Assembly (NCBI GenBank): GCA_031402655.1
Contig: JANNSO010000038.1
Span: 17,260-81,259, forward strand
Direction of reading: 5' to 3'
Length of the DNA stretch: 64,000 nucleotides
Source: Spirochaetota bacterium
GTDB taxonomy: Bacteria > Spirochaetota > Spirochaetia > Treponematales > UBA12059
In this document: one piece after another, positions 1 through 28,821 of the stretch
Position numbering within the stretch: the stretch's first letter is position 1
Layout: each line of letters opens with the position of its first letter
Made by a program: the position numbers and the translations under genes
The notes under the pieces: model-generated
Told to the model about the DNA's origin: nothing
Database searches by the model: none
Seen by the model: the letters and a program-made list of their open reading frames with translations, nothing else

Positions 1-2523
1 GCGAACCGCCATTACTATTGAACCACCTAGTTTTTCTATGACTTCCAATCCACCTTCACGAGTACCCCCTTGAGCAATGGTATTTGTGGCTAGGGTTCCG
101 AAGGCACGTGCAGGTTTTAGCAAATTATAATTACGTCGTACAAAATAGCCAACCAAATCAATAGCACCAGCAGGTGCATATTCTGTCGTCAAATAATCAA
201 GATAAGCTGCACCAAAAGTGCTTTTCAATTTCCGGTTACCTAAAAACGGAGGATTGCCCAAAAAGCAATCAAAGCCACCATCCTGCATAACCTCGGCAAA
301 CTCCAAAAACCAATGAAAAAATCGGCGTTCCGAAGCCGCCTTTTCGGCACGTAGGCTTATTGGGTGGTCTTGCAAGTCAGTAGTACCGTTTAGAAATTCA
401 CGGTATTGGCTTTCAGTAGCTATAGCTTCATGTGGTTGTTTGTTAATAAAAAACGGTGCAACTTTGATGTCAGCCAAAGCTTTAAGCTTAAGCCAAGCGC
501 TGCCTGACGTTACGTGCTGGTAGGTTTCTTTCTTATGTGCAGCTGCCTCTGGCGTCGAGTCGTCCATGGCTCCAATGGCTTTTAGTGTTTCAATAACCGT
601 ATTCAAGCTATCGCCTAGTGGGCTACGCCAATTAAACATTGCTTGTTTGATTGCAGCGTCTTCATATTCTTTTTTATGACGCTTACGTAACAAAGCGCCA
701 TAGTCCTTGTCATCACCATCGCGAGAGGCAAAGGCGGCTTCGCTTATTCCGTCAAGTAACTCTTCGGCCCTAGTAAGGCCTACAAGGCTATCACCGCATT
801 TTATATGGTTATCCAAGAAACCTAGTGAAGTGCCGGGATTATGGCTTTCTAGCCAGAGTGCTACTTTACATAATCGAACGGCTTGCGGGTTACTGTCCAC
901 ACCATAAATACAATGTTCTATGACTTCACGAAGCGCTTTACGGTAACTGCCAGGATCGGGATTGTCAGTGCCAGTACGCACCCGGGCAAGTTCCAAGGCA
1001 ATTCGGCGCGCGGCATTGAGTAAAATGTGTCCTGAACCGCAAGCATCATCGCATACCTTCAGTTTAAGTAGGCGTTCCTGTGCATCCGTATGCGTTAAGG
1101 CTTCGGTTATAAGTGGTTCAAGGGCGTGTTCTATGAGAGGCTGTACGAGTTCCTCAGGCGTGTAATGGCTACCGCTTCTGCCTCGGTCGTTACCTTTGGT
1201 AAAACAGAAACGCCAGATACTGCCATGGTCGGCAACGCAAGCATCCAAGTCTAGTAAGCCTTCATATACTGAGCCAAATTCTTCAACGTTTAGCGCTGCA
1301 TAGTTAACGCGTACTTCCACGCCTCGCTTATCGTCCAGATACGAGTCTAAAAGATTGAGGCCACGCGCAAAGGCATAATTATCAATAGTTAACTCTTTGA
1401 GCAAAGGCATGGCGTCCATTGCAAAAAGATCGCCTGCCAGCGGTTTAAGACCCAGCTTCTCAGCCTGCGCGGCATCTTCATGCAAGTCAAAGCAGGAACA
1501 TAAGGTTTGCCATAAATCTACGTGTCGCGATTCCTCGCGCCTTACAAGGCGACAACGAGTCCTTAACGATTGCAGCGAATAATACGTAAAGTAGATCTCC
1601 TTAAGGTCCTGCGAGCATTCGCTTGGGTGTACAAGGTCGCGTTCTTCGATAACGAGCAGGAACAATATCCGATAGACAAGAGTCAATAAATCTTCATACA
1701 GATTTGACGCCTGCCAAGCCCCAGCCTTGAATGTTTCCCGGAAACGAGTGTTTTCTGCATGAGCTAAAAAGCCGTCAGCCCACAATACCATGGACTGCTC
1801 CACTGCTACAGAAAGTTTATTGCGTATTCGCTCACCGTTTTCCAGGCTATCTTGATGATACTGTTCAAGGAGGCAGGTTGCGGCATCTTGACCTTGCTCA
1901 GGCCAGCGGCTTACGTGTAGTAGCCGAAACAATACTGCAAAGTCTGCATACAGTTCTTCCTCGAATATCTGTTCAAGGTTAAACTCAAGATACGATAATT
2001 TAACAAGGCGGCTTGAATCCCGTAGTATGCGCAACACAAGCCCATTACTTACGATTGCAAAGAGCGTTTCCTCGTTCAGATTCAAGTATTCCTGCACGAG
2101 ACTATGAGGGCTGTACCGAGCGCCTTCCCGTTTTTTATCAAGGCTTTCCATCCAGCCAACGATGTGCACAGGGCAAATCCGTCCACCTGCTTTGTAGCTT
2201 ATCGCAAAACTTTTTCCGGCAACTTCTTCAGCTTGAGCAGCTTGCAAATCAAATCCAAGTAATGCCAAAAAAGGCTGCAACCAGAACTGACGCGTGCGAG
2301 AAGTGCCGTATTTATCTTTTATGTCTTCTCGCTCACGCCGTGCTCGGAACATGCCCCATTGAGCCTTGGCGTCAGCCCAAGCGATTGCAATTTCGTCCTT
2401 TACCTTACCTTGAAGGCAAAAGTCGCCAGGCTTCTGCCCTTTCAAAGTGTTATCGTCGCTTAACTTGTCTATGGTCTGGGGACCTATAAGACCGCCCTCC
2501 CAAGAAATGCCTGCATATTTCAT
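1..2523 (-). CDS. N6-adenine DNA methyltransferase, Eco57I/PglX/DrmMI-like; C-terminus cut by window start
   Basis: Absent from the ORF track because the frame reaches no stop inside the window. Hand translation of the minus strand from ATG 2523..2521 gives 841 uninterrupted codons (MKYAGISWEGGLIGPQTIDKL...). AdoMet motif KVCDDACGSGHILL lies at about 1024-1065. SHYTPEELV and catalytic GNPPF are present (NPPF = 244-255). The ATG overlaps the TGA of the upstream helicase gene (ATGA, 2520-2523). Confidence 0.85.
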   Translation of the reverse strand, partial: MKYAGISWEGGLIGPQTIDKLSDDNTLKGQKPGDFCLQGKVKDEIAIAWADAKAQWGMFRARREREDIKDKYGTSRTRQFWLQPFLALLGFDLQAAQAEEVAGKSFAISYKAGGRICPVHIVGWMESLDKKREGARYSPHSLVQEYLNLNEETLFAIVSNGLVLRILRDSSRLVKLSYLEFNLEQIFEEELYADFAVLFRLLHVSRWPEQGQDAATCLLEQYHQDSLENGERIRNKLSVAVEQSMVLWADGFLAHAENTRFRETFKAGAWQASNLYEDLLTLVYRILFLLVIEERDLVHPSECSQDLKEIYFTYYSLQSLRTRCRLVRREESRHVDLWQTLCSCFDLHEDAAQAEKLGLKPLAGDLFAMDAMPLLKELTIDNYAFARGLNLLDSYLDDKRGVEVRVNYAALNVEEFGSVYEGLLDLDACVADHGSIWRFCFTKGNDRGRSGSHYTPEELVQPLIEHALEPLITEALTHTDAQERLLKLKVCDDACGSGHILLNAARRIALELARVRTGTDNPDPGSYRKALREVIEHCIYGVDSNPQAVRLCKVALWLESHNPGTSLGFLDNHIKCGDSLVGLTRAEELLDGISEAAFASRDGDDKDYGALLRKRHKKEYEDAAIKQAMFNWRSPLGDSLNTVIETLKAIGAMDDSTPEAAAHKKETYQHVTSGSAWLKLKALADIKVAPFFINKQPHEAIATESQYREFLNGTTDLQDHPISLRAEKAASERRFFHWFLEFAEVMQDGGFDCFLGNPPFLGNRKLKSTFGAAYLDYLTTEYAPAGAIDLVGYFVRRNYNLLKPARAFGTLATNTIAQGGTREGGLEVIEKLGGSIVMAVR

Positions 2524-5396
2524 AACGAACCCTCGCTTACAGGTACGAATATGTACATGCCAAGCACATCGAGGGGAATCACCGGTTCAACGACGCGAAA
2601 GCGTGCGTTTTTAGTTACTGTCCCCAAACCTTGTACTTCACCTAAAGCGCGGTAATAGCGTTCGTGTTCACGTATCAGTTCATTGGCGCGTTCGTGCGCA
2701 AGTACATCCAAGGCAGTTCGCGTCTGCTCTAAAAGGACAAGTTCGCGCTCAAGCTGACGTTTTTGCGTTTCCAATGGAATATCTCCGACAATTTTCGGGT
2801 CATTCATGAGTGTTTCTGTTTCCTCAACGCTCATGATCTGCCTACTCGTTCCTTTATAGCCCCGAACCAAAATTTCTTCCGCCACGAGATGCCCGCCAGC
2901 TCGTTTATCTTCTATAACATGTCTCGCCCGTAAAACATAGATGGCACAACGCTCGCTTATGACTGTAGAAGCGCTAACCGAAGCCCGAGATGCATTCTTG
3001 TATTCTCTATCAGGATTAAGGGATTCAGATAAAACAAGTTGGCATAAAGCTTCCACGGCATCGTTATTACGCCCCCAGTAGACAGTGCCTTCCGGAGTTG
3101 GTGCCTTAAAAGCCAAACTGGTTTTCCCGGGCAACCATTTGCGCAGGGTATCGGGTACCTGAGTTGCGTTCACGTTAATTATTAATTTCTTGTCATCAAG
3201 TGGTATGTTTACGCCATAGAGTTCTTTCAATGCAGTATGAACGAAACGGCAAACGGTTTCCGGTCTTCCTACTGCTTCGTCGGTACGACCCAGGTCTTTT
3301 TCTATTTCCTGCGCCTTGATACTACGCTGGGCAAAAATAGTCCGCAAGCTTATTTCTTTCTTCTCTCGTTCGTTCATCAAAATTCCCAGAGCCTGTTCAC
3401 TACGGACCATCTCGTCCAAGCCGAACAATTCCATCTGATCTACTGGCTTTCTTTTCTTTTCTGCTTCCGCAAGCAAAGCCTTGAATATGGTATCGAGGAA
3501 CACCTTGGAATCCTCGGGAAACGGTATGCTTACGCCAATATTGGTTCGTATCACTTTGGCCTTGTTGTACAACACCTTGAGTACGATCTGATCCATGGGG
3601 TTATCCTGCCCAAAGAGCAGACAAGTATATACGTTTGGCTTTAGCTGCCCAAAACGATCTACTCGTCCCTCGCGCTGTTCCAAGCGGTTCGGGTTCCAAG
3701 GCAAATCGTAATGCAATACCGCATCAAAAATATGCTGCAAGTTGATACCTTCGGACAGGCAATCGGTAGCTACTAGCACACGGCGCTTAATCTGGCCATC
3801 AATCGGAGCCATCGCCTGTACCCGTTCGCGGCGCACTTCGTCAGGATCTTCGCTGGTAATGCATTCCACCAGCACCTTGTTCCCTAATTCCTTCTGGAGT
3901 TTATCAGCAAGGTATTTGGCGGTTTCAATATAGCGGCAAAAAACTACCGGTGATATTTCCTTCGCAATCCAGTCTTTTATCTGCAAGGCGCAATAAAACG
4001 CCTTTGCATCCTTGTTTCCTTCCTGTAATCCGCGCAGGATTTTACCAAAGCGTGCAAAGCTTTCTTTCTGTCCGGTCTTTAGTTCTATCTGTTCCAGAAC
4101 GGGAGTTGGCAATTCGTCATCACTGGCTTCTAGTCGCTCATAGTGTGGATTTTCCAGTTCTTCCGCACTTATAGAATCATCGGCTTCAGCGTTTTTATTG
4201 GCACTCCCTGCCCGGTTCTCAAGCATCGTAGCTCCAGCCGCTGGGCTGGAAATTATACCACGCAGCAATGCCAGTGCCGACCAGTAGCGGAATCGTTTCT
4301 GATTTTCACTACCGCCGGGAGCAGCCATAAGAGCGGATGCGAAAAGCAATACTTCGTCGTATAAAGCCTGATATTCGGCACTCAGCTTGTAGGGAATATC
4401 CTTGGAGACACGCGTAGGAAATGGTGTTGTTTCATCGAGCCATACTTTTATATCACCGCGCCTGCGTTGCACGAAATGTTCGGCCAGCTCGGCACGTAGA
4501 TTTTTTTTGTCTTCAGACTCCCATTCGCCTGTTTCAAACGCTGGCTTTAGCAGTCCTAACAGGGAACGAAACTCGTCTTCCTTCCCCGAATGAGGAGTTG
4601 CTGTCATCAACACAAGATGCTGCTTGGGGTTTTGCGCTAAAGTACGAACCAAACGATGCCGTAATTGCTGGCCATGGTGCGAACCTTGCGGCTTCGCGCA
4701 GGTATGTACTTCATCGACAATAACCAGTTCCGGGGCTTGCGACGTAAACACGCTATAGCGTTGATCGCTTTTAATATAATCGATGCTGATAACCTGATAC
4801 GGGTAATACTCAAACACGCTGCGGTCGCCTTGAATCTTTCGGTCAAGACTTGCCTGCGTTGTTGTTCGCATGATAACCGCATCGATATTGAACTTTTCCT
4901 TAAGCTCGGTATGCCATTGATCGCAGAGATGTGGAGGACACAGAATCGCGAATCGCTTTATTTCCCTGCGCTCAATAAGTTCTTTTGCAATCAGCAGAGC
5001 TTCCACAGTTTTACCAACACCCACATCGTCGGCAATAAGCAGTCGTATCGCGTCCTGCTGTTTTAATGCCATAATGAGAGGCACCATCTGGTAACTGCGC
5101 GGTCTAAACCCAAGCATTGCTGCACAGCGAAAAGGTCCAGCGGCAGAACGCAATGACAGCCTTGATGCATCGAATAGTAGCCGGGCAGCACGAGCTGTTC
5201 CGAGATCTCCTACTGTTGGCGGGTTAAACTGCGATGGCTGCACACTTCCTGTGGCCATAAGGGGCATATAAATTCCGCTTACATCGTCTTCACGCCCACC
5301 AAGGGGCTTCAAGCGCAATAGATCTGCATTTTCAGAAGGAAGTACAACCCAATCTCTGCCACGCGCATGGACTAACGTTCCGGTTTTATAGAGCAT
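2520..5396 (-). CDS. SNF2-family helicase (DISARM DrmD-like)
   Basis: 958-aa ORF. Motif I DDVGVGKTVEA, DExH box LVIVDEVHTC, and helicase-C block VLVATDCLSEGINLQ...LPWNPNRLEQREGRVDRFGQ are typical of SNF2/RapA-type ATPases. There is a 6-nt gap to the upstream gene and a 4-nt overlap with the downstream methyltransferase. Confidence 0.85.
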   Translation of the reverse strand: MLYKTGTLVHARGRDWVVLPSENADLLRLKPLGGREDDVSGIYMPLMATGSVQPSQFNPPTVGDLGTARAARLLFDASRLSLRSAAGPFRCAAMLGFRPRSYQMVPLIMALKQQDAIRLLIADDVGVGKTVEALLIAKELIERREIKRFAILCPPHLCDQWHTELKEKFNIDAVIMRTTTQASLDRKIQGDRSVFEYYPYQVISIDYIKSDQRYSVFTSQAPELVIVDEVHTCAKPQGSHHGQQLRHRLVRTLAQNPKQHLVLMTATPHSGKEDEFRSLLGLLKPAFETGEWESEDKKNLRAELAEHFVQRRRGDIKVWLDETTPFPTRVSKDIPYKLSAEYQALYDEVLLFASALMAAPGGSENQKRFRYWSALALLRGIISSPAAGATMLENRAGSANKNAEADDSISAEELENPHYERLEASDDELPTPVLEQIELKTGQKESFARFGKILRGLQEGNKDAKAFYCALQIKDWIAKEISPVVFCRYIETAKYLADKLQKELGNKVLVECITSEDPDEVRRERVQAMAPIDGQIKRRVLVATDCLSEGINLQHIFDAVLHYDLPWNPNRLEQREGRVDRFGQLKPNVYTCLLFGQDNPMDQIVLKVLYNKAKVIRTNIGVSIPFPEDSKVFLDTIFKALLAEAEKKRKPVDQMELFGLDEMVRSEQALGILMNEREKKEISLRTIFAQRSIKAQEIEKDLGRTDEAVGRPETVCRFVHTALKELYGVNIPLDDKKLIINVNATQVPDTLRKWLPGKTSLAFKAPTPEGTVYWGRNNDAVEALCQLVLSESLNPDREYKNASRASVSASTVISERCAIYVLRARHVIEDKRAGGHLVAEEILVRGYKGTSRQIMSVEETETLMNDPKIVGDIPLETQKRQLERELVLLEQTRTALDVLAHERANELIREHERYYRALGEVQGLGTVTKNARFRVVEPVIPLDVLGMYIFVPVSEGSL

Positions 5397-5402
5397 GGTG
5401 GT

Positions 5403-8400
5403 TTATCGTACCTTTCTGAAAATATCGGGACGAGAAGCTACAAGCTCATCCAATGATTCCAGGTAATGATACACGATATAATCTTGACCCATATCGAGTA
5501 TCGCATCGCGCTGTTGTGTGTCCTTATTCATTACCGATTCGCGGTCATGGGGAGTGCCGTCGCAAAATACATGAATGGGCACGCTGCCATGTATCGGCGC
5601 ATAGTAAAAATCGGGTACACAATATAATCCGGTTACTTTACGTTGAGCCTCGTCCGGCAATCGCAAACCATGGTCATACACGTAATCGAGAAACTTTCGC
5701 TCCGTTACGCTGTTTGTATCATAAGCATCAAGCAAGCGCTTGTATTGTTCTTCGTAAGTACCAGCATCTGCCACGCCTACTTCTACACGGGCAGAACGCA
5801 GGCGCTCCATGGCTCCTCTAATCAAATTGCGATCTATAATGGCATGGTCAGGCTGATTATAATAGCTTAACAGGTCATCGTAGCTTGCTTTATCCGTGTA
5901 AGTAGGGTCGTCGAACCTGCACAAACGCCATGCCTCATCGGCGACCATCTTCCAGGCGTCATTATCATCGACCAAACCGGCAAGGACTCCCAAACTGCCT
6001 TCTGCCGCTTCATACATTAAAAGATTCGGTTCGGCAGCCTCACCAATGGGAACAATTCCTAATTCGGCGCTTTCTATGCTGAAGACTCGTTCAACTGCAG
6101 TTTTCAAGGCGTATTGCAGTGTTGTACGTCCCGAAGCATCAAGTTCGAGTATTTTAAGCGGCTCAATATAGAGCGCATCAGCAGTATCGCTGGTGTATAA
6201 TTTCACGATTTTCAGGTCGTCCATCGTTACCGATTTTGATTGCAGTTTCCCTGTCGCGATACTCTCGCGATATCCATGGCTCTTCCAATGTCCTGATATC
6301 TTATTCAGTACAAAACCATCGGCTTTCTGGTTACGCCATTTTGAGTTTACGTATACCAGCTCGGCAGAAGGTATGAAGCGCAATCGAAGCAAAATATCCT
6401 CTCCCGACATAAGCCTGAGTTCTCGTATACGCGAAGGATCGCCGGTAAAACGGAAATATGTGTCTATTTGATAACCAAGGCGTGTCCGTTCCTCTTCTTC
6501 ACAGGTAATATGGGTCATCCGCTCGGCAATTCCGTCAGGCAAGCGCATAAGTCCGGCTATTTTACAGGTATGCGTATCCAGCTCTGCCCCAGTCCAAGGG
6601 TCGGTATTTCGCTGCTGGTCTGAGCCCAGAAGGATATACCCAGATCTTGAACAGACCGTAGCTTCTTCTCCATCATTAGCGATTTCCTGTAACTGAGCGC
6701 GAGTAACTTGATACTTAGCCCCATTATGGTAGATTAGATTTTCAGGTCCCATTTCACGGATTGCCAACACACGGTCACGGCTTAAAGCTTCCGCATCCTT
6801 ATCTAGCTGCAGGAACAAGCGAACTGGTAACCGGGTAAAATTATAACCGGGTAAAAAACCTTCGCTTGCAAGATAACGGTATGCATAGAACTCGGAGAAA
6901 CTTCCACCTCCAGCTTCATTCAATAGAAGTTTGCGCATCCTCAGGGCAAGGCTTGCATTACGGTATGCTTCCTTATGCTCGACACTGGTTGTCTGAATAA
7001 TCGGGTTATCTAAAACACGGTCTGCATCGTCCTTTTGCCTGGCTTGTTGATGGAACAAGTTTCTCCAGCGATCCATAGCGGAATCAAATGTACCCGGTAG
7101 ATTAATAAGCTGGCGTTCAGCCCAATCGGGGGTATACCAGGAGCACAAAGCAAGATCAGGTAGCAAATCATCTATTACAGCGAGCCATTTCTTGATTATG
7201 GATTCTGAATTTATGGAAGCCCTGGCTACATCGATTTTTGTTTCCGGCTTTAGCGGAATCAAGGGGTTCAGAATATCCAGCACGTCATCAAGCTTTCCGC
7301 TTAACCCAGCGATGCCGCGTTTCGAAAGATACAATGCATGGAAGTGGCTTCGCAATAATTCTTCATTAACCAGATCGAGGCGTGGTGCATGCACGGCACC
7401 GGATACCATATCATTATTGTTTTTGAAAAAATGAGTATCGTGAGCAGAACGCCTGCTGCAGCTAGTAAAGACAAGAGCTGGCTGGCCACTACGCCCTGCC
7501 CGCCCGGATCGTTGCGCATAGTTTGCAGCATTCGGTGGCACATTGCGCATATGAACGATACTCAGGTCGGCAATATCGATACCCAGTTCCATTGTCGGGG
7601 AGCAAAACAACGTTGATAATTTGCCGCTTCTAAAATCATCTTCCCGGCTCTGTCGTTCATTCTTGTCAACTTGCCCCGTATGTTCTTTAGCTTTTATACG
7701 CCCGGCAATGCTGGTTGAATTATATAAATCCCTAAAAAATTCGTTTGGGCTGCGTAGTGTATCTCGAACATTCCGCCTAAAAACTGGGTCGGCCGAAATT
7801 GTTCCATCCCCAAGCTTCCAAGTAATCTGGTCAGCTTTAAGCCGGTACGCCTTCTCCCCCGTAGCTTTAGGAATAGGCATACTCAATAGCCAGCCCGCAC
7901 TTTCCATGCGGTCAAGAAGCTTGCCAATAAAATCAATATAGGTAGGACCATCCATTTTGATGCCTTCTTTTGAAAGCATCTGTCGGATGTATTTCCCTAG
8001 TCGGCTTTGTTCTCCGATAGATTGCGAGAATCCAACATTTCGAGGTAGGTTTGCGCGTTTAAGCGTAAGCCAGTTTGGTTCCTGAATATCCTTTTCTTCT
8101 GGGACCCAATCAGGATGAAGGTTTTCCTTGAATTCCTCCAAATTTTTACGCAAGGCTCCTTCGCCAAAATATGAGGCGTGGCTAAAGGCATAAGATTTAC
8201 GAAAATATTCAAGCACCAAATGCACGAGAGTGGGGAAATCAAGTTCACTGCCTTTGCAAATATCGGGTAAGTCTCCCCATGCAGAATCGCCAATACGTTC
8301 ATCCCACTCATCATATGCAATAGTCAATAAACCGCACGCCTCAAGGCCAGGCATATTTATTCGCCATGAGTTTGATAGATCAGCGAGTACTAGGTACTTT

Positions 8401-10538
8401 ATTAGGCTTTGAAATATTTCTTTAAGCCGTCTTTGCGCAGTAACAAAACGAGGAGCATTTGGATTATCGGGGGTACGTGCAAAATCATCGTGCGACAATC
8501 CAATATTGTCGAATATTGCTTTGTCTATGTCTGAAAAGTTTATAACATGCTTCGTTTGTAAAGCCCGCACTAAAGCGGAACGCATGCGTACCGTAGAAAC
8601 AAAATCGTTAAAATGCCCAGACTGAAGAGATGCATCCTGCCTGTTATCGGTAAAACTCAAAACCTTGGTGTCTTTGGTGGAAAAACCGGCGCGCGGCATT
8701 GCATCGAGGATTCCAAGAGACAAAATAGTGGTAGCTGTTGAGCGGCCTTCGATTCCGATACGCGTAAGCTTAGTAAACTCGCTAGTTTGATGATGATATA
8801 AGTCACCGCTAGTCGGATCATAAATAAATTTTACAGGCACAAACCATCCAGAATATGGCAGATTGGTTCCTGAGCCATAGTTTCCCATGGCGTCATATGA
8901 AATAGGGGAAGGAAACTTGTGTGCGTACTCCTTTTTAATGGTCAGCACTCCCAACTGTTCCTTGGTAAACTCGCCAGGCAAATTCACCAGGTCCTCATCT
9001 CTATTCCATGAGTCTTTTCCTGGCAAGATGTACCCGCAGACAACCGAGTTCTCTTGTTCTTCATCCACGGATTCATCACTAAAATCGCGGGCTTCAATCG
9101 TTGAAACTAAAATATTTTTCCGTATGCATAAAAAAGGCTTACCTGACGAACGGCCAAAGACAACTGGGAACAGCGGATAGTTAAGCCCGTCTTTCTCCTT
9201 CGACGGAACTCCATCGAAACTCAAAAGGCGTTCGGGTGGTTCGTGGAGAGACACTGAAAGAGAAGCTGATTGAGCTATAAACTGATGTAGCTTAAATGGC
9301 AATACAAAAGGAACCCGCCCGCCACTCGTTTCGTTTGCCTGGGCAATCTGTTCGTTTATTCGGGATATGGCGCTAAAGATATCGCGCAACGCCTGCTGAC
9401 ACAGCTCGAAATTAGCGACCCCAGAATCTTCCGATAGCACTGCAGCTATGTTTTTCAAAGCAAGTGCTAAGCCTCGTCGAATTACTATCCCTTCCTGTTT
9501 TAGAGCGATCTTGCGCTCAACCCAACGAAACAGTGGCAGAGATAGTACTTGATCCATCGATAGATCAGTAGGCAAGGATATAGAAACCGCTTTGAAAAGT
9601 TCAGCCTTGCTTGGCAGTTCAGATTCAATCGAAATAGCTTTAAGGGATTCTTCGACTATCTGATCCTGGCTAAAAGGACTTCCAAAAAACCTTGATGCCA
9701 CCTTGGCGATCGTAGTTTTTCTTTCGGAAACGGTAGCCCCTCCTGCCATTGTGGCCGAAGTGCCCATGCATTGGATCTCTTTCTTGCATTCAGCCTTGAT
9801 TCGGCGAATAAGAACACCAACATCTGCACCTTGCCTACCCCGGAAGGTATGCAGTTCATCGAAGGCGATATACTTGAGATTATTAAAAATTGCATTCTTG
9901 AGTGAATCATCGCCGCCGCGCGTAAGCAACAATTCAAGCATCATATAATTGGTAAGTAAAAGATGCGGTGGATTCTGCCGTATCTCATCGCGCGTTTTTT
10001 CATCTTCCTGCCCGGTAAACTGGCACGCCCGGATCGGAAAGGCCTTCCCAGTTTTTGCATAGTACTTATCAGCATATTTTTTTATTTCGTTGGTCTGCGA
10101 ATTTATTAGGGCATTCATAGGATATACTATCAATCCGACTATCCCTGAGCTCTGGTTTTGAAGTACATCGTTAAAAATTGTGCCCAAAAAAGTTAGCGAC
10201 TTTCCGGAGCCAGTTCCAGAGGTTACAACAAAACCCTTTCCTTTGGACCCTAGGCGCAACGCTTCTTCCTGATGCTTGTGTAACTTATAGCCACTAAACA
10301 CGGCGGCCATATCCGCGTGAAGTACGCCTTCAGTCACCAAAGAATCGATACTTGCGCCTTCCTCATAGGATGGATTGAATTGAATAAGCGGATCCGGCCA
10401 CATAATCTTGTTCCGGCCTTCAATCGCAAGAGCTTCCTCGATCTGGGGATCATCAATATCCACAAAACTGCTGGCAAAAGCCTTATACTTGGTCATTATG
10501 TCTTCATGCAGACTGAAAATATCGATTATTTTGCTCAT
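5403..10538 (-). CDS. 1711-aa DEAD/DEAH-box helicase with DUF1998-like region and endonuclease-like C-terminal tail (DrmA-DrmB-like fusion; DruE-like is the alternative)
   Basis: Walker A VVTSGTGSGKSLTF (around 10205-10228), DExH box AFDELHTFRG (9843-9866), motif III GTSAT, motif VI YAQRSGRAGRSG (about 7492-7517). Downstream, the FLPGYNFTRLP and YEAAEGSLGVL stretches resemble YprA/MrfA-type DUF1998 modules. The last ~110 aa (CVPDFYY...IHVFCDGTPHD...QRDAILDMGQDYIVY) resemble a Vsr/DUF559-type nuclease fold. Confidence 0.8.
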   Translation of the reverse strand: MSKIIDIFSLHEDIMTKYKAFASSFVDIDDPQIEEALAIEGRNKIMWPDPLIQFNPSYEEGASIDSLVTEGVLHADMAAVFSGYKLHKHQEEALRLGSKGKGFVVTSGTGSGKSLTFLGTIFNDVLQNQSSGIVGLIVYPMNALINSQTNEIKKYADKYYAKTGKAFPIRACQFTGQEDEKTRDEIRQNPPHLLLTNYMMLELLLTRGGDDSLKNAIFNNLKYIAFDELHTFRGRQGADVGVLIRRIKAECKKEIQCMGTSATMAGGATVSERKTTIAKVASRFFGSPFSQDQIVEESLKAISIESELPSKAELFKAVSISLPTDLSMDQVLSLPLFRWVERKIALKQEGIVIRRGLALALKNIAAVLSEDSGVANFELCQQALRDIFSAISRINEQIAQANETSGGRVPFVLPFKLHQFIAQSASLSVSLHEPPERLLSFDGVPSKEKDGLNYPLFPVVFGRSSGKPFLCIRKNILVSTIEARDFSDESVDEEQENSVVCGYILPGKDSWNRDEDLVNLPGEFTKEQLGVLTIKKEYAHKFPSPISYDAMGNYGSGTNLPYSGWFVPVKFIYDPTSGDLYHHQTSEFTKLTRIGIEGRSTATTILSLGILDAMPRAGFSTKDTKVLSFTDNRQDASLQSGHFNDFVSTVRMRSALVRALQTKHVINFSDIDKAIFDNIGLSHDDFARTPDNPNAPRFVTAQRRLKEIFQSLIKYLVLADLSNSWRINMPGLEACGLLTIAYDEWDERIGDSAWGDLPDICKGSELDFPTLVHLVLEYFRKSYAFSHASYFGEGALRKNLEEFKENLHPDWVPEEKDIQEPNWLTLKRANLPRNVGFSQSIGEQSRLGKYIRQMLSKEGIKMDGPTYIDFIGKLLDRMESAGWLLSMPIPKATGEKAYRLKADQITWKLGDGTISADPVFRRNVRDTLRSPNEFFRDLYNSTSIAGRIKAKEHTGQVDKNERQSREDDFRSGKLSTLFCSPTMELGIDIADLSIVHMRNVPPNAANYAQRSGRAGRSGQPALVFTSCSRRSAHDTHFFKNNNDMVSGAVHAPRLDLVNEELLRSHFHALYLSKRGIAGLSGKLDDVLDILNPLIPLKPETKIDVARASINSESIIKKWLAVIDDLLPDLALCSWYTPDWAERQLINLPGTFDSAMDRWRNLFHQQARQKDDADRVLDNPIIQTTSVEHKEAYRNASLALRMRKLLLNEAGGGSFSEFYAYRYLASEGFLPGYNFTRLPVRLFLQLDKDAEALSRDRVLAIREMGPENLIYHNGAKYQVTRAQLQEIANDGEEATVCSRSGYILLGSDQQRNTDPWTGAELDTHTCKIAGLMRLPDGIAERMTHITCEEEERTRLGYQIDTYFRFTGDPSRIRELRLMSGEDILLRLRFIPSAELVYVNSKWRNQKADGFVLNKISGHWKSHGYRESIATGKLQSKSVTMDDLKIVKLYTSDTADALYIEPLKILELDASGRTTLQYALKTAVERVFSIESAELGIVPIGEAAEPNLLMYEAAEGSLGVLAGLVDDNDAWKMVADEAWRLCRFDDPTYTDKASYDDLLSYYNQPDHAIIDRNLIRGAMERLRSARVEVGVADAGTYEEQYKRLLDAYDTNSVTERKFLDYVYDHGLRLPDEAQRKVTGLYCVPDFYYAPIHGSVPIHVFCDGTPHDRESVMNKDTQQRDAILDMGQDYIVYHYLESLDELVASRPDIFRKVR

Positions 10539-10637: not shown

Positions 10638-11036
10638 CTAATAGATTCCTAATACTGATAGCTTTGCTCTAATAAACGAAATAGCCTCATCAGCCAGATG
10701 CAGGGCATGCTGTATAACGGCAATATCAAGCGATCCTGGATAAGGATATCGTATTTTTACTGCATACTCGGTTAATTGAGCGCAGGTTTGCGTTAGCGTA
10801 ATAAATTGTTCATCGTATTTTTTACACTGGCTTAGTAAGAAGAGTAAGTCATGGGTTTTGTCCGGCTCAATATCATGTTTTATTAAATAAGCCTTGAGGT
10901 ATTTTTCAACGGCTTGCTGGCAATGAAAACCGACTATCTCCAGCGGAACAGGTTTCATACTCATGAGAAATTTAGCGGAATTTAGATCTTGAAGACCCAG
11001 CTCCAGCCATTCTGCGATCAGCTTATCAAGCTGCAT
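10638..11036 (-). CDS. HEPN domain protein (toxin of an MNT-HEPN pair)
   Basis: 132 aa. QQAVEKYLKAYLIKHDIEPDKTHDLLFLL and KIRYPYPG are typical of PF05168-type HEPN proteins. The start overlaps the MNT gene by 11 nt. Confidence 0.75.
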   Translation of the reverse strand: MQLDKLIAEWLELGLQDLNSAKFLMSMKPVPLEIVGFHCQQAVEKYLKAYLIKHDIEPDKTHDLLFLLSQCKKYDEQFITLTQTCAQLTEYAVKIRYPYPGSLDIAVIQHALHLADEAISFIRAKLSVLGIY

Positions 11037-11367
11037 ACAAGACCTTTCCTTCGCGCGCTATTTTCCGTTCGAGTGTGGGAAGCGTAGACCGAGCCTGATA
11101 ATCATGCATGTTTTCAACGATCAGGTCTAAAGGAAACGAAACCATCCCAAAAGCCTGCTGTCGTATCGTCGATGCAATACGGGCATGTTCGGATTCCTCG
11201 TTATCCACTAAAACGAGCAAGTCGACATCGCTGCTCTCGTTCCTTGTCCCGCGCGCGGTTGACCCGAACAGGATTATCGACCTCACTGAAGGGTCAGAGC
11301 TTATTGATGATAAAAGTGCTTCAAGTTCCTGTAGCATAATTTTAGATAATTGGATACCTTCTTGCAT
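11026..11367 (-). CDS. Minimal nucleotidyltransferase (MNT antitoxin-type)
   Basis: 113 aa with the signature LFGSTARGTRNESSDVDLLVLVD (GSxxRGxxxxxSDxD). It lies immediately upstream of and overlaps the HEPN gene. Confidence 0.85.
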   Translation of the reverse strand: MQEGIQLSKIMLQELEALLSSISSDPSVRSIILFGSTARGTRNESSDVDLLVLVDNEESEHARIASTIRQQAFGMVSFPLDLIVENMHDYQARSTLPTLERKIAREGKVLYAA

Positions 11368-11461: not shown

Positions 11462-11695
11462 TCATAAACTCGCCTGAATCGACGATTTCCCTAGTTCAAA
11501 GTCAGTTTTCTCTAAGACGCTTCGGACCGATTCATTCAAGCGTTCTCGCAGTTGCTTAGAATCCATATCGGCGGCAGCTCTGAGCACAAACCGCAGAAGA
11601 TCCGCCCTTGAGATGCCGACTTCAGAAGCGATTTGATTTAGCTTAGCCCCAAGGCTTTCTTCTATTCTTATCGTCATTACTTCACTGTTAGCCAT
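11462..11695 (-). CDS. Ribbon-helix-helix (CopG/Arc-like) DNA-binding protein
   Basis: I place the start at the internal ATG 11695 (MANSEVMTIRIEESLGAKLNQIASEVGISRADLLRFVLR). This gives a beta-strand plus two-helix RHH pattern. The longer track ORF (to 11809) adds an implausible N-terminus. The gene is divergent from the plus-strand phage-like cluster. Confidence 0.6.
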   Translation of the reverse strand: MANSEVMTIRIEESLGAKLNQIASEVGISRADLLRFVLRAAADMDSKQLRERLNESVRSVLEKTDFELGKSSIQASL

Positions 11696-11999
11696 GCATA
11701 CAGAGTAATCTATTTGACTACAGAACGCAACATTAAATGATGTTTTAGGTATTAAATATCTATTATCACGTTTCATTAAATGAAATACCAGAATCAGTTG
11801 TTCACCCAATTAAAACTGACAGCGGTTAAATATTCCAGTATACAATCTAGGGAAGGCTTAAAATATTGCTCATAGGGAGATCTTGCAAGAAGACGGTACT
11901 CGAACTCTCGCCAGCTTTTGACACTTCAGATTAGATTGCTGGATACAAACAATCATCACGCCTACTTCAAATTCATTCTATAAAGCCTCTTAAAGTCTG

Positions 12000-12174: not shown

Positions 12175-12594
12175 ATGCTGTACGATCTTGTCTCAGAACG
12201 CAGGAGTAAGTATTGCGTTAAAGTCACCCAACCTGAGGAAGCTTACTCCGCGTTGAAACGTTATTCTCGAAAGGCACAGGAGCATTTTCTCGTCATCTGC
12301 TTGAATGCAGGGCGTATGGCCATCGCCACACGTATCATAACTGTCGGGCTCCTTAACCGTACGGTAATTCACCCTCGAGAGATATTCCGCCAAGCCATCA
12401 TCGACAATGCGGAGTCAATCATCATCGCCCACAATCATCCCTCAGGACTACTCTCACCCAGTAACGAAGACATTGAGCTTACAAAACGTATCCAAGAAGT
12501 TGGGAGGCTCGTGGGAATCCCGGTACTCGATCATCTTATTATTGGCCGAAATGGTTTCTATAGTTTCGCCACCGAAGGACTCTTGCGCCTATGA
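12175..12594 (+). CDS. RadC-like JAB/JAMM domain protein
   Basis: 139 aa with the JAMM motif IIAHNHPSGLLSPSNEDIELT, followed by VLDHLIIG. The length and motif match the short phage/ICE-borne RadC family. Confidence 0.85.
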   Translation: MLYDLVSERRSKYCVKVTQPEEAYSALKRYSRKAQEHFLVICLNAGRMAIATRIITVGLLNRTVIHPREIFRQAIIDNAESIIIAHNHPSGLLSPSNEDIELTKRIQEVGRLVGIPVLDHLIIGRNGFYSFATEGLLRL

Positions 12595-12612
12595 GCGCAG
12601 AAAGGAAAGACA

Positions 12613-13548
12613 ATGGAACTTGATTCCAAACGCAGTCACAGTGAAGAAGGATTAAATTCGGTCGTCGACCGTGCTCTTCTTGAAAACTGGATTACCAAGA
12701 CACCTGAAGGTAGCGCTCTCATGCCGGATGAAAAAGAACGCTTCATCAACACGGCCTTACTCTATCAGCTGAATCCATGGAAACGCGAAATTCATTGCAA
12801 AATCGATAACGCAAACCAGAGCCGGAAGCTTGTACTCGTAGTCGGCTATGAGGTGTATGTAAAGAAAGCGGAACGTACAGGTCTGCTTGATGGTTGGAAA
12901 GCATGGGTAGAAGGATCCGGCGACAATCTCAAAGGTGTTATAGAGATATACCGCAAGGATTGGTCTCATCCTTTTATTCATGAAGTCTACTGGGCAGAAG
13001 CAGTCCAGACTAATGAACGCGGGGAGCTCTTATTTTTCTGGCAAAAGATGCCCTGTTTCCAGCTCAGAAAAGTCGCTATCAGCCAAGGATTCAGACTAGC
13101 CTTCTCCGATGAAATCGGTGGGATTCCCTATGATGGATCAGAGCTTCCACTGTCTGAGAATATGCCTCCGCTTAAACAGGCAACCAATGAAGAGCGTGTC
13201 CAAAAGCCAGCCGCGACACCGTTAGCAAAAACAGAATCCGTGGATACCCTCGAAAACTTACAGGAGGGCATTCGGAAACTCACCTTGGATAACCAAGCCT
13301 TCCTAAAACCTACACATGTCTCATGGATTATCACTCAGCTAACAACGGAAAAGTCTGAGAAGCAACTTACAGGTCTTCATCAGCATGTAAAAAATGCAAT
13401 CGAGGAAGGCAAAGCTAATTCTATACCTCAGGTTAAGCCAAACGGTATTCGTCGCTTTCCCTCTAGGCGTCCACCAGATACTTCTAATGGCAACGTCCGC
13501 CATGAGCCGCTCAAAACCGCTGCTGGAGCTGAAGATCAAATATTCTAG
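12613..13548 (+). CDS. RecT/Bet-family single-strand annealing recombinase
   Basis: 311 aa. LNPWKREIH...VVGYEVYVKKAERTGLLDGW...FWQKMPCFQLRKVAISQGFRLAFSDEIGG matches the conserved W..MP..ML.K.A...ALR.AFP block of RecT/phage Bet proteins. Confidence 0.7.
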   Translation: MELDSKRSHSEEGLNSVVDRALLENWITKTPEGSALMPDEKERFINTALLYQLNPWKREIHCKIDNANQSRKLVLVVGYEVYVKKAERTGLLDGWKAWVEGSGDNLKGVIEIYRKDWSHPFIHEVYWAEAVQTNERGELLFFWQKMPCFQLRKVAISQGFRLAFSDEIGGIPYDGSELPLSENMPPLKQATNEERVQKPAATPLAKTESVDTLENLQEGIRKLTLDNQAFLKPTHVSWIITQLTTEKSEKQLTGLHQHVKNAIEEGKANSIPQVKPNGIRRFPSRRPPDTSNGNVRHEPLKTAAGAEDQIF

Positions 13549-13565
13549 TTAGAAAGGAATTTCCC

Positions 13566-14150
13566 ATGTTCGAACGTGCAAATACAAAGCAAAGCTCGCC
13601 GGATCTCGGCGAGCTTTTGTTTTCTCCTGAAAGCATTGATGTAACTACTAATGCCGAAGATTTTTCTATCACATCGATCGAGATGGCTACCTGGGCAGCT
13701 CGTAAAGTAATACAGGCGCGAACGCGCGTCGCGGAGCGAAAAACCTTGGCTGAGCGCTACAAGGCTCGCATCGACCAGTGGGTGAATGACGCCAACAAAG
13801 AAGATGATGACAGCACCGAATTTTTCATGAACCACCTAAAGCCCTTTGCAGAACGAGAAATCGGGAAACAGCGCCGCTCTCGCACACTTCACTTGCCCGG
13901 AGCAGAATTGTGTATGAGGAAGAAACCGGACCGCATAGAAATCCTCGATGAGCAGGAAGCCATTATCTACTGCGAGGAATATCTCCCGTCGGCGCTTATT
14001 ATAAAGAAAAGTCTCTCAAAGACCGTATTGAAGGCATCGATGCATTCAGGAGAACTTCCGCCCTCGGTATCCTTTATTCCAGGTGAAGATGAACTGTATG
14101 TGAATGCAGATGGCATAGGTCAGAACCTTGGAGCTCTCGATGCAGCGTAA
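13566..14150 (+). CDS. Mu Gam-like host-nuclease inhibitor family protein (tentative)
   Basis: 194 aa. An N-terminal coiled-coil-like segment (ATWAARKVIQARTRVAERKTLAERYKARIDQW) is followed by RSRTLHLPGAELCMRKKPDRIEILDEQEAIIYCEEY. This resembles the Gam-like pattern KS..L..G.v..R......v.d...... Confidence 0.5.
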   Translation: MFERANTKQSSPDLGELLFSPESIDVTTNAEDFSITSIEMATWAARKVIQARTRVAERKTLAERYKARIDQWVNDANKEDDDSTEFFMNHLKPFAEREIGKQRRSRTLHLPGAELCMRKKPDRIEILDEQEAIIYCEEYLPSALIIKKSLSKTVLKASMHSGELPPSVSFIPGEDELYVNADGIGQNLGALDAA

Positions 14151-14496
14151 TGAGAGCATTTGGAGCCTTCCGGGTATCCTTGTAGACGCAAGCGACCAAG
14201 CAAAGTCGCTCAATCTTGAAGGGTCAGTTGCCATCACGTATGGCGCTACAAAAGAACTCAAGCCATCTGGATTCCTTCAGGACCTTGGGATATCACTTGA
14301 AAGCCGCATTACGAATCTACTCCGCCTCGTTAAAGCTAGGTTATCGCCAGCAAACGATAGCCAGCGCTTTGTCATCAGTCTCTGCATCGCGCAAGGGCCA
14401 GTTATACGCGAGCAAATCGTCGATTTCTATGTGACTGTCGAAAGCAACGATTCCTCAGAATCCTCCATCATCATTTCTACTACAGCAAGTGAGTAG
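14128..14496 (+). CDS. Hypothetical protein
   Basis: 122-aa ORF co-oriented within the cluster. It overlaps the previous gene's end, so the true start may be the MQRNES methionine at about 14140. No recognisable motif. Confidence 0.4.
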   Translation: MELSMQRNESIWSLPGILVDASDQAKSLNLEGSVAITYGATKELKPSGFLQDLGISLESRITNLLRLVKARLSPANDSQRFVISLCIAQGPVIREQIVDFYVTVESNDSSESSIIISTTASE

Positions 14497-14520
14497 CGCC
14501 ATCAAGAAAGGAAATATCAC

Positions 14521-15075
14521 ATGATTGAAATTCAGAAATCAACTACCACAACAGCGGACTACGAAGGCTTATCCTTTGTTCTTAAAGCGCTCAGTACCGA
14601 CGAGACTCGGCCATTCATGATGGTCGTGCATATCGAAAAACGGAAACGAGGAATCACGGCCGTAGCAACGGATGGAAAGCGCATGCATACTGCGGATTTG
14701 GATCTTGATGTAGCTCCCGGTGATTACGTGCCGCTGATTACCAAAGCCTCGGTGATCCTGAAACCTAGCACCGGTATTCAGTTTCCCGATTGGAAACGCG
14801 TGTTTCCCAAAGTTGGGACTGAGATTACTATGCTTGATTTCTCATCTGCCGGAATTGGCAAGAAAAACACGCAATGCGCAAATATGACCCAGCAAGTCCT
14901 GAAGCTCTACGAAAAGACGCATCAAGCCGTAAACATGCAATTCCTCGATGACCTTTCCAAGGGTCCATGGACTGTATATGGCGTAGGCGGAACCTCGCGT
15001 GCAGTGCTCTTGAAACGAACAGAAGGGGAACTTGAACGTAGCGCTGTACTCATGCCGATGGAAATGGCAGCGTAG
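14521..15075 (+). CDS. DnaN (sliding-clamp beta)-like protein, about half normal length
   Basis: 184 aa. VATDGKRMH matches the clamp ATDGHRLA motif. FPDWKRVFP matches the clamp FPDY.RVIP motif. The C-terminal AVLMPMEM resembles the clamp C-terminal ..MPMRL. Confidence 0.45.
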   Translation: MIEIQKSTTTTADYEGLSFVLKALSTDETRPFMMVVHIEKRKRGITAVATDGKRMHTADLDLDVAPGDYVPLITKASVILKPSTGIQFPDWKRVFPKVGTEITMLDFSSAGIGKKNTQCANMTQQVLKLYEKTHQAVNMQFLDDLSKGPWTVYGVGGTSRAVLLKRTEGELERSAVLMPMEMAA

Positions 15076-15079
15076 ATGT

Positions 15080-28631: not shown

Positions 28632-28748
28632 CGTGTGCTCCGAAAAAATCTGACATTTCGTCTGACACACACTGTTTAGACCGCAAGCACCATAAAATAC
28701 AAAAACCGCAATCCCTTATCTAGTAAGGAGTTGCGGTTCTCGTCTAAT

Positions 28749-28821
28749 TGGAGAATACCGGATTCGAACCGGTGACCTATTGATTGCGAACCAATCGCTC
28801 TACCAACTGAGCTAATTCCCC
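28749..28821 (-). tRNA. tRNA-Ala (anticodon CGC)
   Basis: The minus strand reads GGGGAAT TA GCTC AGTTGGTA GAGC G ATTGG TTCGCAA TCAAT AGGTC ACCGG TTCGAAT CCGGT ATTCTCC A. This folds as a 73-nt cloverleaf with the G3:U70 alanine identity pair and anticodon CGC. CCA is not encoded. Confidence 0.9.

Follow-up and report, generated by a model that had tools for sequence, protein, structure and literature searches.

A predicted Vsr/DUF559-type nuclease domain fused to the YprA-family helicase of an ARMADA Type I locus

The window, a stretch of 64,000 nucleotides from a Spirochaetota bacterium, codes for a giant helicase whose C-terminal tail raises the question of whether this enzyme carries its own nuclease and, if so, in which defence system. 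The original prediction had taken the tail for a restriction-endonuclease-like domain of the Vsr/DUF559 type that may stand in for the separate PLD protein of a DISARM system. Our analysis leads to the reading that the tail is a Vsr/DUF559 PD-(D/E)xK domain on the YprA helicase in an ARMADA Type I operon of three genes and that it works as proposed in the last section, and we give this reading as a whole a probability of about 0.7. Two of its parts carry weights of their own: that the tail represents a nuclease domain of the Vsr/DUF559 type carried by an ARMADA I helicase is very probable, and the tail has a somewhat better than even chance of being an active, defence-relevant nuclease.

A folded C-terminal domain on a YprA-family helicase

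The best PADLOC matches of the helicase are DruE models, each of which covers the protein in two to three stretches, the best of the stretches listed falling in the helicase core; its best PDB matches are DruE (9tu7) and MrfA/YprA (6znp). In BLASTP comparisons residues 946-1688 align with residues 991-1795 of ArmC (E 8e-25), and the C-terminal half of the helicase can be aligned with ArmC, which is not the case for DruE. The MZB family, for which Table 1 gives the value of the window protein, is matched in 45 of 69 helicase relatives (Pfam, best 3.7e-8). Zinc-binding modules are typical of ARMADA helicases (PMC12458937); the window helicase, in contrast, belongs to a Cys-poor sub-clade, having no CxxC motif and lacking the 4-Cys cluster of DUF1998. 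In this sub-clade the tail would sit in a helicase that has lost its zinc-binding modules altogether.

Table 1. Features of the locus with their positions in the window and the evidence for each assignment
Feature	Position	Strand	Evidence
PglX-like N6-adenine DNA methyltransferase (ArmB-like), first ~841 aa, runs off the left window edge	1..2523	-	NPPF motif; Pfam Eco57I, MmeI_Mtase, N6_Mtase; BLASTP ArmB E 6e-17
BrxHII/RapA-like SNF2 helicase (ArmA-like), 958 aa	2520..5396	-	Pfam SNF2-rel_dom + Helicase_C; PADLOC DpdE, DrmD, BrxHII; BLASTP ArmA E 5e-41
YprA-family (ArmC-like) helicase, 1,711 aa	5403..10538	-	Pfam, PADLOC, PDB, BLASTP
DEAD, residues 88-265	9744-10277	-	Pfam, 1.2e-24
Helicase_C, residues 947-1018	7485-7700	-	Pfam, 1.1e-14
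MZB/DUF1998-like, residues 1474-1536	5931-6119	-	Pfam; MZB only 0.013 in window protein
C-terminal Vsr/DUF559-type PD-(D/E)xK nuclease domain (predicted), residues 1593-1711	5406..5762	-	AF2, Foldseek, Pfam in relatives, hhalign
E1613, invariant Glu of the first core helix; opposite Vsr E25 and the Glu of YcjD 'QERK'	5700..5702	-	Conservation + hhalign
P1642-D1643-F1644 ('PDF'); D1643 opposite catalytic Vsr D51	5607..5615	-	D and F invariant; alignment
F1658-C1659-D1660-G1661-T-P-H1664-D1665; opposite Vsr F62-T63-H64-G65 + His cluster and YcjD E-L-D-G-G-Q-H-D	5544..5567	-	Conservation + hhalign
D1673, invariant; opposite Vsr D97	5520..5522	-	Conservation + hhalign

The tail residues quoted in the original prediction (1614-1692) match the translation of the minus-strand open reading frame 5403..10538. 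The span given there, 5403-5750, corresponds to residues 1597-1711 plus the stop codon; the modelled domain begins slightly earlier, at residue 1593. In an AF2 model of 119 amino acids, residues 1593-1711 fold into one compact domain with high confidence (pLDDT 96.5, pTM 0.88) and with secondary structure elements in the order alpha-alpha-beta-beta-beta-alpha-beta-alpha. The model shows the alpha-beta-beta-beta-alpha-beta core of the PD-(D/E)xK fold and matches known members of this fold structurally.

Structure prediction followed by a Foldseek search had been suggested together with the original prediction, and this approach gave a confident fold, BFVD matches to DUF559 proteins and homing endonucleases, and weak PDB matches. 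The best matches of the model in BFVD, a library of predicted viral structures, are DUF559 proteins, Vsr-like homing endonucleases and DUF2726, with a probability of 1.0, TM scores of 0.57-0.67, an rmsd of about 3 Å and, for the DUF559 proteins and homing endonucleases, E-values of 3e-4 to 5e-3; phage DUF559 proteins rank second and twelfth among them. Unlike BFVD, the PDB did not yield clear DUF559 matches. Its top 50, recorded with a 185-aa model and with the 119-aa core, consist almost entirely of PD-(D/E)xK nucleases with weak scores (best E 0.011), with nothing at E<=0.001 and with the Vsr and DUF559 entries lying outside the top 50.

On the sequence level the tail of the window protein matches nothing relevant in Pfam (E<=1, including Vsr and DUF559), NCBIfam or PADLOC, and searches of the PDB sequences with phmmer, or with hmmsearch and a 278-position profile, returned only spurious matches. 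A tighter and more diverse tail profile placed the Vsr-like homing endonuclease 3r3p first among the PDB sequences, at an E-value of only 0.33. The assignment to Pfam families comes from the relatives of the tail, whose best matches are DUF559 (PF04480, e.g. E. coli YcjD) and MTES_1575 (PF18741): DUF559 is matched by 38 of 57 related tails (best 5e-7) and MTES_1575 by 24 of them, while Vsr is matched by just three, at E>=0.016. In profile-profile comparisons with hhalign the tail family aligns in register with both E. coli Vsr (E 8.7e-5) and the DUF559 protein YcjD (E 6.5e-4, probability 27%).

The domain is widespread. A search with the tail profile gave 976 cluster representatives at E<=0.001, of which 516 also pass E<=1e-10, the clusters being formed at 50% identity and many of the listed matches being short fragments. 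Among the full-length matches listed (~1,650-1,910 aa) the domain is always C-terminal, ending no more than about 15 residues before the protein does, and 472 loci on GTDB contigs, with one genome per species, code for it. The tail is also the best conserved segment of the helicase, with 70% identity to the closest fully compared locus (L002), where the first 1,500 residues reach 60%, and about 52% compared to 40% in distant loci. That the resemblance of the motifs is fortuitous and the tail adopts no nuclease fold is hardly credible: the window tail itself has no direct Pfam or PDB sequence match, but transitive Pfam matches, in-register profile alignments and structural matches converge on one superfamily, and chance does not account for the resemblance because the C-terminal domain recurs widely with its residues conserved. 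The type of domain named in the original prediction is therefore borne out by the AF2 model, Foldseek, the Pfam matches of the relatives and hhalign.

Conservation and register of the active-site residues

In an alignment of 121 close homologues P1628-D1629, Q1632, D1643-F1644, D1660-G1661, H1664-D1665, D1673 and R1677 vary hardly or not at all, and E1613, D1643, F1644, G1661, H1664 and D1673 show no variation even in a set spanning down to 32% identity. E. coli Vsr (PF03852) has the core fold in common with the tail, and its residues E25, D51, F62-T63-H64-G65, D97 and G108 are in register with it. The catalytic residues of Vsr, reportedly defined by Tsutakawa et al. in 1999, are said to be D51, the main chain of T63, H64, H69, D97 and E25. 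According to the hhalign register E1613 corresponds to E25, D1643 to D51, F1658 to F62, C1659 to T63, D1660 to H64, G1661 to G65 and D1673 to D97. H1664 falls within the His cluster of Vsr, with H69 as its probable counterpart. Counterparts of the Vsr-type catalytic constellation are thus present in the tail and invariant or nearly so, with Asp replacing His at D1660.

The comparison with DUF559 corrects a detail of the original prediction, which had stated that the acidic residue before the DG motif is replaced by Cys. This was one position out of register: in the profile alignments the Glu of DUF559 (the E of 'vELDG' in YcjD) sits opposite F1658 and not C1659, which faces a Leu in YcjD and T63 in Vsr. 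Diverged members and E. coli ArmC ('IFLDG') have I, V or L in place of C1659. YcjD and the tail can be aligned over the whole motif D-F...x-D-G-x-x-H-D...D..R...G. Of the DUF559 motif D-F ... E-x-D-G-x-x-H ... D-x-x-R ... G the tail keeps all positions except for the Glu of 'vEvDG', which is Phe in the tail.

This substitution bears on the idea that the tail has a nuclease fold without catalytic function, retained for DNA binding, structure or regulation. Such inactivity is what Bell et al. predict for the Vsr domains in Druantia I/II and for the additional Vsr/EEP domains in ARMADA II, inactivated Vsr domains exist in related helicases (PMC12458937), and the window tail scores below every curated family threshold. 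Yet a Phe at the DUF559 Glu position is no argument for inactivity, because active Vsr, like the tail, has no acidic residue there but a Phe. The remaining counterparts of the Vsr active site are invariant or nearly invariant down to 32% identity, which is rare in inactivated domains, and the ARMADA I domain has been classed as predicted active by Bell et al. (PMC12458937). We consider a dead fold very improbable.

Outside the active site the tail differs from Vsr in several features. It has neither the Zn site (C66/H71/C73/C117) nor the intercalating residues F67, W68 and W86, contains no Cys/His cluster, and its aligned segment, G-T-P-H-D, has a deletion relative to Vsr residues 66-73. Nothing points to a T:G mismatch specificity of the tail. 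Taken by itself, its active site has a hybrid appearance, with a Vsr-like Phe at the Glu position, a DUF559-like Asp at the position of Vsr His64, and a conserved Cys.

Operon architecture and system identity

The helicase gene is the first of three closely packed genes. Its stop codon and the start codon of the SNF2 gene are 6 nt apart, and the ATG of the methyltransferase gene overlaps the SNF2 stop codon (ATGA). The order YprA helicase, SNF2, methyltransferase is kept in 80 related loci from many phyla wherever enough downstream sequence is available, and the same order occurs on the Paraburkholderia plasmid NZ_LR699555.1. The SNF2 protein matches one PADLOC DpdE model over its full length (8.7e-169), and the window methyltransferase gives weak NCBIfam matches to PglX of BREX. 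A tblastn search with E. coli ArmD detected no ArmD-like (GajB-like/RelE) fourth gene in the 80 related loci, the window itself ending inside the methyltransferase gene; in two loci (L007, L086) the downstream genes are unrelated. The conserved three-gene core comprises no other nuclease gene. Extra genes in two further loci (L021, L012) code for a Schlafen-AlbA_2/HATPase_c_4/Fic-like_C protein and an AbiE-like pair, which are not nucleases. The expectation that the predicted nuclease is fused to the helicase instead of being a separate PLD protein is supported, as the tail is part of the helicase and neither the window nor those related loci whose extra genes were scanned showed a PLD gene.

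By gene order, domain content and homology to Arm proteins, the locus is assigned to ARMADA Type I, a predicted anti-phage operon of three genes. For this type a C-terminal nuclease of the Vsr kind, predicted to be active, has already been described (Bell et al. 2025, bioRxiv, PMC12458937), the YprA helicases of ARMADA I and II being listed with a 'predicted active Vsr-type nuclease' (PMC12458937), and ArmC has been likened to a fused DrmABC in which a Vsr-type nuclease replaces the PLD domain (PMC12458937; PMC13463889). ARMADA Type I shares with the window the same gene order of YprA-like helicase, BrxHII-like SNF2 protein and PglX-like methyltransferase and the single C-terminal Vsr-type nuclease on the helicase, and has no GajB-like fourth gene, which is likewise missing in the loci related to the window. 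As a fused Vsr-type nuclease has already been published as a hallmark of the ARMADA systems, the window system counts as one more ordinary example of them.

For comparison we used the experimentally validated ARMADA Type II system of E. coli ATCC 8739 (ArmC, WP_000937965.1). The helicase core and C-terminal half of ArmC are homologous to the window helicase (E 8e-25), the tail aligns with its first Vsr-type domain (residues 1734-1795, 'RPDY...IFLDGFAFH...KRQAI..G', E 2.8e-6), and homologues of ArmA and ArmB adjoin the helicase in both systems. Type II differs in its order ArmA-ArmB-ArmC-ArmD with RelE-GajB as fourth gene, and its ArmC comprises 2,113 aa with extra EEP and Vsr domains predicted to be inactive and nine CxxC motifs; overall identity to the window helicase is just 22-34%.

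The DISARM setting assumed in the original prediction does not hold. Like the window locus, DISARM brings together a YprA-type helicase, DUF1998, a second helicase of the SNF2 type, a methyltransferase acting on adenine and a nuclease, but this nuclease is a PLD protein and not of the Vsr-type PD-(D/E)xK kind. Here DUF1998 is fused to the helicase with no separate DrmB gene, a gene for a PLD nuclease such as DrmC was found neither in the window locus nor in the related loci scanned, and the NCBIfam scores for DrmA (17.8 bits, cut-off 950) and DrmD (about 291, cut-off 610) are far below the thresholds. DruE of Druantia type III (9tu7, 9wae) resembles the window helicase in being a YprA-type motor of 3'-to-5' polarity to whose C-terminus a nuclease domain is fused. 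However, DruE has two PLD domains and the partner DruH, whereas the window helicase has a Vsr-type domain and SNF2 and methyltransferase neighbours, and the BLAST similarity between the two is restricted to the helicase motifs; we thus rejected Druantia. Dpd was rejected as well, since the NCBIfam scores reach only 183 bits for DpdE (cut-off 500) and 58 for DpdJ (cut-off 800) and the neighbours do not include the 7-deazaguanine modification genes dpdA/B/C. The locus is now placed in a defence class for which PADLOC 2.0.0 has no model; PADLOC labels ARMADA I proteins as DruE, DpdE or DrmD, and RefSeq lists them plainly as 'DEAD/DEAH box helicase'.

Proposed role of the tail in defence

Beyond the observed fold family, active-site conservation and operon architecture with its conservation, we infer a catalytic activity, a substrate, a coupling to the helicase and a need for the tail in defence. 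In the proposed mechanism the PglX-like methyltransferase would mark host DNA, and the YprA-type motor would load on invader DNA that lacks the mark, at forks or single-stranded stretches, and translocate in an ATP-driven manner, as has been shown for its relatives MrfA and DruE. The tail might then nick or degrade the DNA fed by the motor. Its metal site would combine D1643 and D1660 with the main-chain carbonyl of C1659, helped by E1613, H1664 and D1673, and the domain would take the place of the separate PLD protein DrmC in DISARM and of the fused PLD domains in DruE. Two related systems speak for this reading: ARMADA II provides direct, non-abortive defence that needs all its genes, and with DruE from P. 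aeruginosa, an ATP-driven nuclease coupled to a helicase, defence is lost once the nuclease is mutated.

Alternatively, the tail could be active but accessory, with the activities of helicase, SNF2 protein and methyltransferase carrying defence, e.g. by unwinding or stalling invader DNA, and the nuclease serving in end-processing, in synergy with other systems or against some phages only. The C-terminal PLD domains of E. coli DruE are fully dispensable for defence, with no nuclease activity detected, defence against some phages does not need DrmC, which some DISARM systems lack altogether, and the ARMADA mutants reported concern only Walker and methyltransferase motifs, with no Vsr-domain mutant among them (PMC12458937). 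Nevertheless, we regard an accessory role as unlikely, given that no other segment of the helicase is as well conserved as the tail, that the tail is always C-terminal among the full-length proteins listed of the 976 cluster representatives and belongs to a three-gene core without any other nuclease gene, and that defence is abolished in the P. aeruginosa nuclease mutants.

Classical Vsr is the partner of the methyltransferase Dcm and reads a methylation-related lesion. By analogy, the tail might be sensor for self and non-self and effector at once, reading a mark or distortion that originates from the PglX-like methyltransferase and nicking only unmarked DNA presented by the helicase, an extension of the proposed mechanism that we rate as improbable.

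What the nucleases fused to defence helicases of the YprA family contribute is currently disputed, since one DruE study found the nuclease essential and another found it dispensable, and the compact three-gene Type I operon with its single nuclease domain would offer a clean system to settle this dispute. E1613, D1643, D1660, H1664 and D1673 are the residues that we name for mutation of the predicted ARMADA nuclease activity. Among public contigs, a single one, a Logan assembly of 14.9 kb, encodes the exact 1,711-aa protein, and the nearest relatives of the window helicase are encoded in Spirochaetota MAGs.

Fold and family of the helicase tail

Residues 1614-1692 of the translated helicase ORF are identical to the C-terminal sequence quoted in the original prediction. 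Pfam matches in the helicase comprise a DEAD/DEAH core (residues 88-265), Helicase_C (947-1018) and, weakly, MrfA Zn-binding/DUF1998 (1474-1536), and the tail, i.e. its last ~119 residues (1593-1711), has no Pfam match of its own and, searched alone, none in PADLOC, NCBIfam or PDB sequences. Among 57 diverse family tails, DUF559 was found in 38 (best 5e-7), MTES_1575 in 24 (best 1.4e-5) and Vsr in three. The family profile matches E. coli Vsr (E 8.7e-5, probability 60%) and the DUF559 protein YcjD of E. coli (E 6.5e-4); its best PDB sequence match, at an E-value of only 0.33, is the 'Mobile intron protein' 3r3p, which we take to be the Vsr-like homing endonuclease I-Bth0305I.

For the 119-residue core, AlphaFold2 with an alignment of 30 sequences predicted the order alpha-alpha-beta-beta-beta-alpha-beta-alpha (pLDDT 96.5, pTM 0.88). 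Foldseek matches of this model in the PDB were weak, none being better than E 0.011, and almost all were PD-(D/E)xK nucleases, including arenavirus/bunyavirus cap-snatching endonucleases, TnsA, Bax1, R2 endonuclease and Hjc; Vsr was absent from the best 50. Viral predicted structures gave clearer matches (E 3e-4 to 5e-3, probability 1.0, TM 0.57-0.67, rmsd ~3 Å), the best including DUF559 proteins, a Bacillus-phage homing endonuclease, DUF2726 and 'restriction endonuclease' entries. Pfam matches of relatives, profile alignments and structural matches thus place the tail in the Vsr/DUF559 branch of the PD-(D/E)xK superfamily, bearing out the predicted nuclease domain, and it is too diverged for membership proper in either curated Pfam family, Vsr or DUF559.

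A search with the last 185 residues returned 205 homologues, nearly all C-terminal fragments of larger proteins and two named 'very-short-patch-repair endonuclease' by JGI, and a 114-position profile of the core returned 976 cluster representatives at E<=0.001. In the listed full-length proteins (about 1,650-1,910 residues) the domain lies at the C-terminus or within ~15 residues of it. On one-genome-per-species GTDB contigs the tail is encoded at 472 loci from many phyla, the nearest (~70% identity) being in Spirochaetota and Treponemataceae MAGs. Conservation is higher in the tail than over helicase residues 1-1,500, at 70% versus 60% identity in the nearest locus that was compared over its full length and about 52% versus 40% in distant loci. 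The tail motif is more than a chance likeness.

The putative active site

The tail profile is in register with Vsr and YcjD along the whole core.

Correspondence of tail residues with Vsr and YcjD in profile alignments
Tail	Vsr	YcjD
E1613	E25	Glu of 'QERK'
D1643	D51	Asp of 'LDF'
F1658	F62	Glu of 'vELDG'
C1659	T63	Leu
D1660	H64	Asp
G1661	G65	Gly
H1664	within His cluster	His
D1673	D97	Asp of 'YDSRR'
G1684	G108	Gly

In the 1999 Vsr-DNA crystal structure of Tsutakawa and colleagues the metals are reportedly bound by D51 and by the T63 backbone carbonyl, with E25, H64, H69 and D97 said to assist. On the basis of these roles each Vsr active-site position would have a conserved counterpart in the tail. 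P1628-D1629, Q1632, D1643-F1644, D1660-G1661, H1664-D1665, D1673 and R1677 vary little or not at all among 121 close sequences, and E1613, D1643, F1644, G1661, H1664 and D1673 are still invariant in a set with identities as low as 32%.

The earlier suggestion that an acidic residue is replaced by Cys was off by one position in the alignment: it is F1658 that lines up with the DUF559 Glu, and active Vsr has Phe at this place, too. C1659 would occupy a position needing only a backbone carbonyl, in agreement with what stands there in diverged members (I, V or L, as in 'FIDG' and 'FVDG') and in E. coli ArmC (Leu, 'IFLDG'). The tail differs from Vsr in lacking both the Zn site and the intercalating aromatic residues, and therefore nothing suggests mismatch specificity. 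The insertion 'HGSVP' (residues 1650-1654) is situated within the hairpin that joins the 'PDF' and 'FCDG' strands and is common to only ~5 of 121 close homologues, longer versions being 'SGGNALP' and 'GPGKNALP'.

System identity and helicase cysteines

The locus shows the architecture for which Bell et al. 2025 (PMC12458937) introduced ARMADA Type I, and the joint assignment of domain and system is very probably correct.

Features of the locus and its surroundings (window positions)
Feature	Position	Strand	Remark
PglX-like N6-adenine methyltransferase	ATG overlaps SNF2 stop (ATGA; 2520-2523), open to window position 1	-	NPPF motif
SNF2 helicase, 958 aa	5396..2520	-	models DpdE, DrmD, BrxHII
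1,711-aa helicase	10538..5403	-	ORF
Terminal 'RPDIFRKVR'	5403-5432	-	
Tail	5406-5762	-	
'HGSVP'	5577-5591	-	
MZB/DUF1998	5931-6119		residues 1474-1536
HEPN protein	10638-11036	-	directly upstream of helicase
MNT-type nucleotidyltransferase	11026-11367	-	upstream of helicase
RHH protein	11462-11809	-	upstream of helicase
Mobile-element-type genes	12175-16311	+	RadC, RecT, Mu Gam-like protein, ArdC-like zincin
tRNA-Ala(cgc)	28748-28822		

At the junction 5396-5405 six nucleotides separate the helicase stop codon from the SNF2 ATG. The order helicase-SNF2-methyltransferase is kept in all 80 related loci wherever the sequence is long enough, and on a RefSeq-annotated Paraburkholderia plasmid; none of the 80 loci encodes a homologue of E. 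coli ArmD (RelE-GajB). The E. coli ARMADA II locus, which has been validated by experiment, served as reference: the helicase matches ArmC 991-1795 over its residues 946-1688 (E 8e-25), and its tail matches the first Vsr-type domain of ArmC (E 2.8e-6). ArmA is the counterpart of the SNF2 protein (5e-41) and ArmB that of the methyltransferase (6e-17). The alignment with DruE is confined to helicase motifs. DISARM, Dpd and DruE identities were rejected under the curated criteria.

PADLOC 2.0.0 labels the proteins DruE, DpdE or DrmD, and RefSeq labels the helicase DEAD/DEAH box helicase. The SNF2 protein aligns over its entire length with the PADLOC model PDLC02853 ('DpdE'; 8.7e-169), but NCBIfam DpdE scores 183 against a cut-off of 500 bits and the scanned neighbours include no Dpd modification genes; PADLOC 2.0.0 thus likely mislabels ARMADA I loci as partial Dpd, DISARM or Druantia. 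The finding is real, was correctly read in outline by the original prediction and is an ordinary addition to a described class, its main value lying in correct annotation and in a precise list of residues for mutation.

The helicase contains 17 Cys and no CxxC motif; E. coli ArmC has nine and DruE six. The DUF1998 cluster, which defines the family, here (MZB/DUF1998 region and onward to residue ~1565) reads 'LCRFDD...ASYDDLLSYY' / 'LCRFDD...ASYDDLLSYYNQ' and retains only C1540 of four cysteines; CxxC-rich relatives have 'CVQACYDCLLSYY' and ArmC 'ECSC...DGCYRC'. Among 58 full-length cluster representatives with the tail, 46 have 0-1 CxxC and 12 have 5-7. Judged from these sequences the cysteine-poor members seem to form a large, zinc-free branch within ARMADA Type I, and this apparently zinc-free sub-clade is more unusual than the tail. 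Loss of the cluster has been reported by Bell et al. only for Dpd (PMC12458937), and DruE no longer confers defence when cysteines of its cluster are changed to Ala.

The extreme C-terminus 'RPDIFRKVR' is near-invariant in the cysteine-poor clade, CxxC-rich relatives having '...DVFG...' in its place. Its codons (AGAAAGGTACGATAA) lie shortly before the SNF2 start codon and may double as the SNF2 ribosome-binding site.

Role of the tail and genomic setting

We put the probability that the tail is an active nuclease that matters for defence at roughly 0.55. In the likeliest mechanism the methyltransferase would mark host DNA, the YprA motor would engage unmarked DNA at single-stranded or forked regions and then translocate, and the Vsr-type tail would cut via a metal site formed by D1643, the C1659 carbonyl and D1660. 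A dead structural domain is highly improbable because the whole catalytic constellation is invariant. The main alternative, an active but accessory nuclease, is somewhat unlikely. Evidence from relatives is divided: DruE of P. aeruginosa, an ATP-driven helicase-coupled nuclease, no longer defends when its nuclease is mutated, whereas E. coli DruE showed no nuclease activity and did not need its PLD domains. Against some phages DrmC is likewise dispensable. Published ARMADA mutants affect Walker A/B and methyltransferase motifs (Bell et al., PMC12458937) or are gene deletions (mBio, PMC13463889). The proposal of a built-in substitute for DrmC coincides with the published view, which concerns a sister system of DISARM.

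About one in four related loci showing both genes (L014, L021, L023, L024, L027, L029 and others) have roughly 1-2 kb of extra sequence at the SNF2-to-methyltransferase junction. L021 carries a 520-aa Schlafen-AlbA_2/HATPase_c_4/Fic-like_C protein there and L012 an AbiE-like pair (8287-10033); no PLD or other nuclease was seen in these extra genes.

Upstream of the helicase, the overlapping HEPN and MNT genes look like a HEPN/MNT toxin-antitoxin pair, and the RHH-MNT-HEPN arrangement is the same on the sole public contig with an identical helicase (L085). The mobile-element-type genes adjoining the operon, a GC content of 42-50% in the left ~28 kb (except for a 53% bin at 20-22 kb) versus 53-60% further right, and the tRNA-Ala(cgc) together suggest an integrated island (window 1-29000). 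Downstream of the methyltransferase gene in L007, a locus from a closely related member of the Spirochaetes, come an Abi_2 (Abi-like) gene and a PDDEXK_4 nuclease gene (12953-15210), in a region whose counterpart in the window would fall past its left edge; this gene content fits a defence-island setting.
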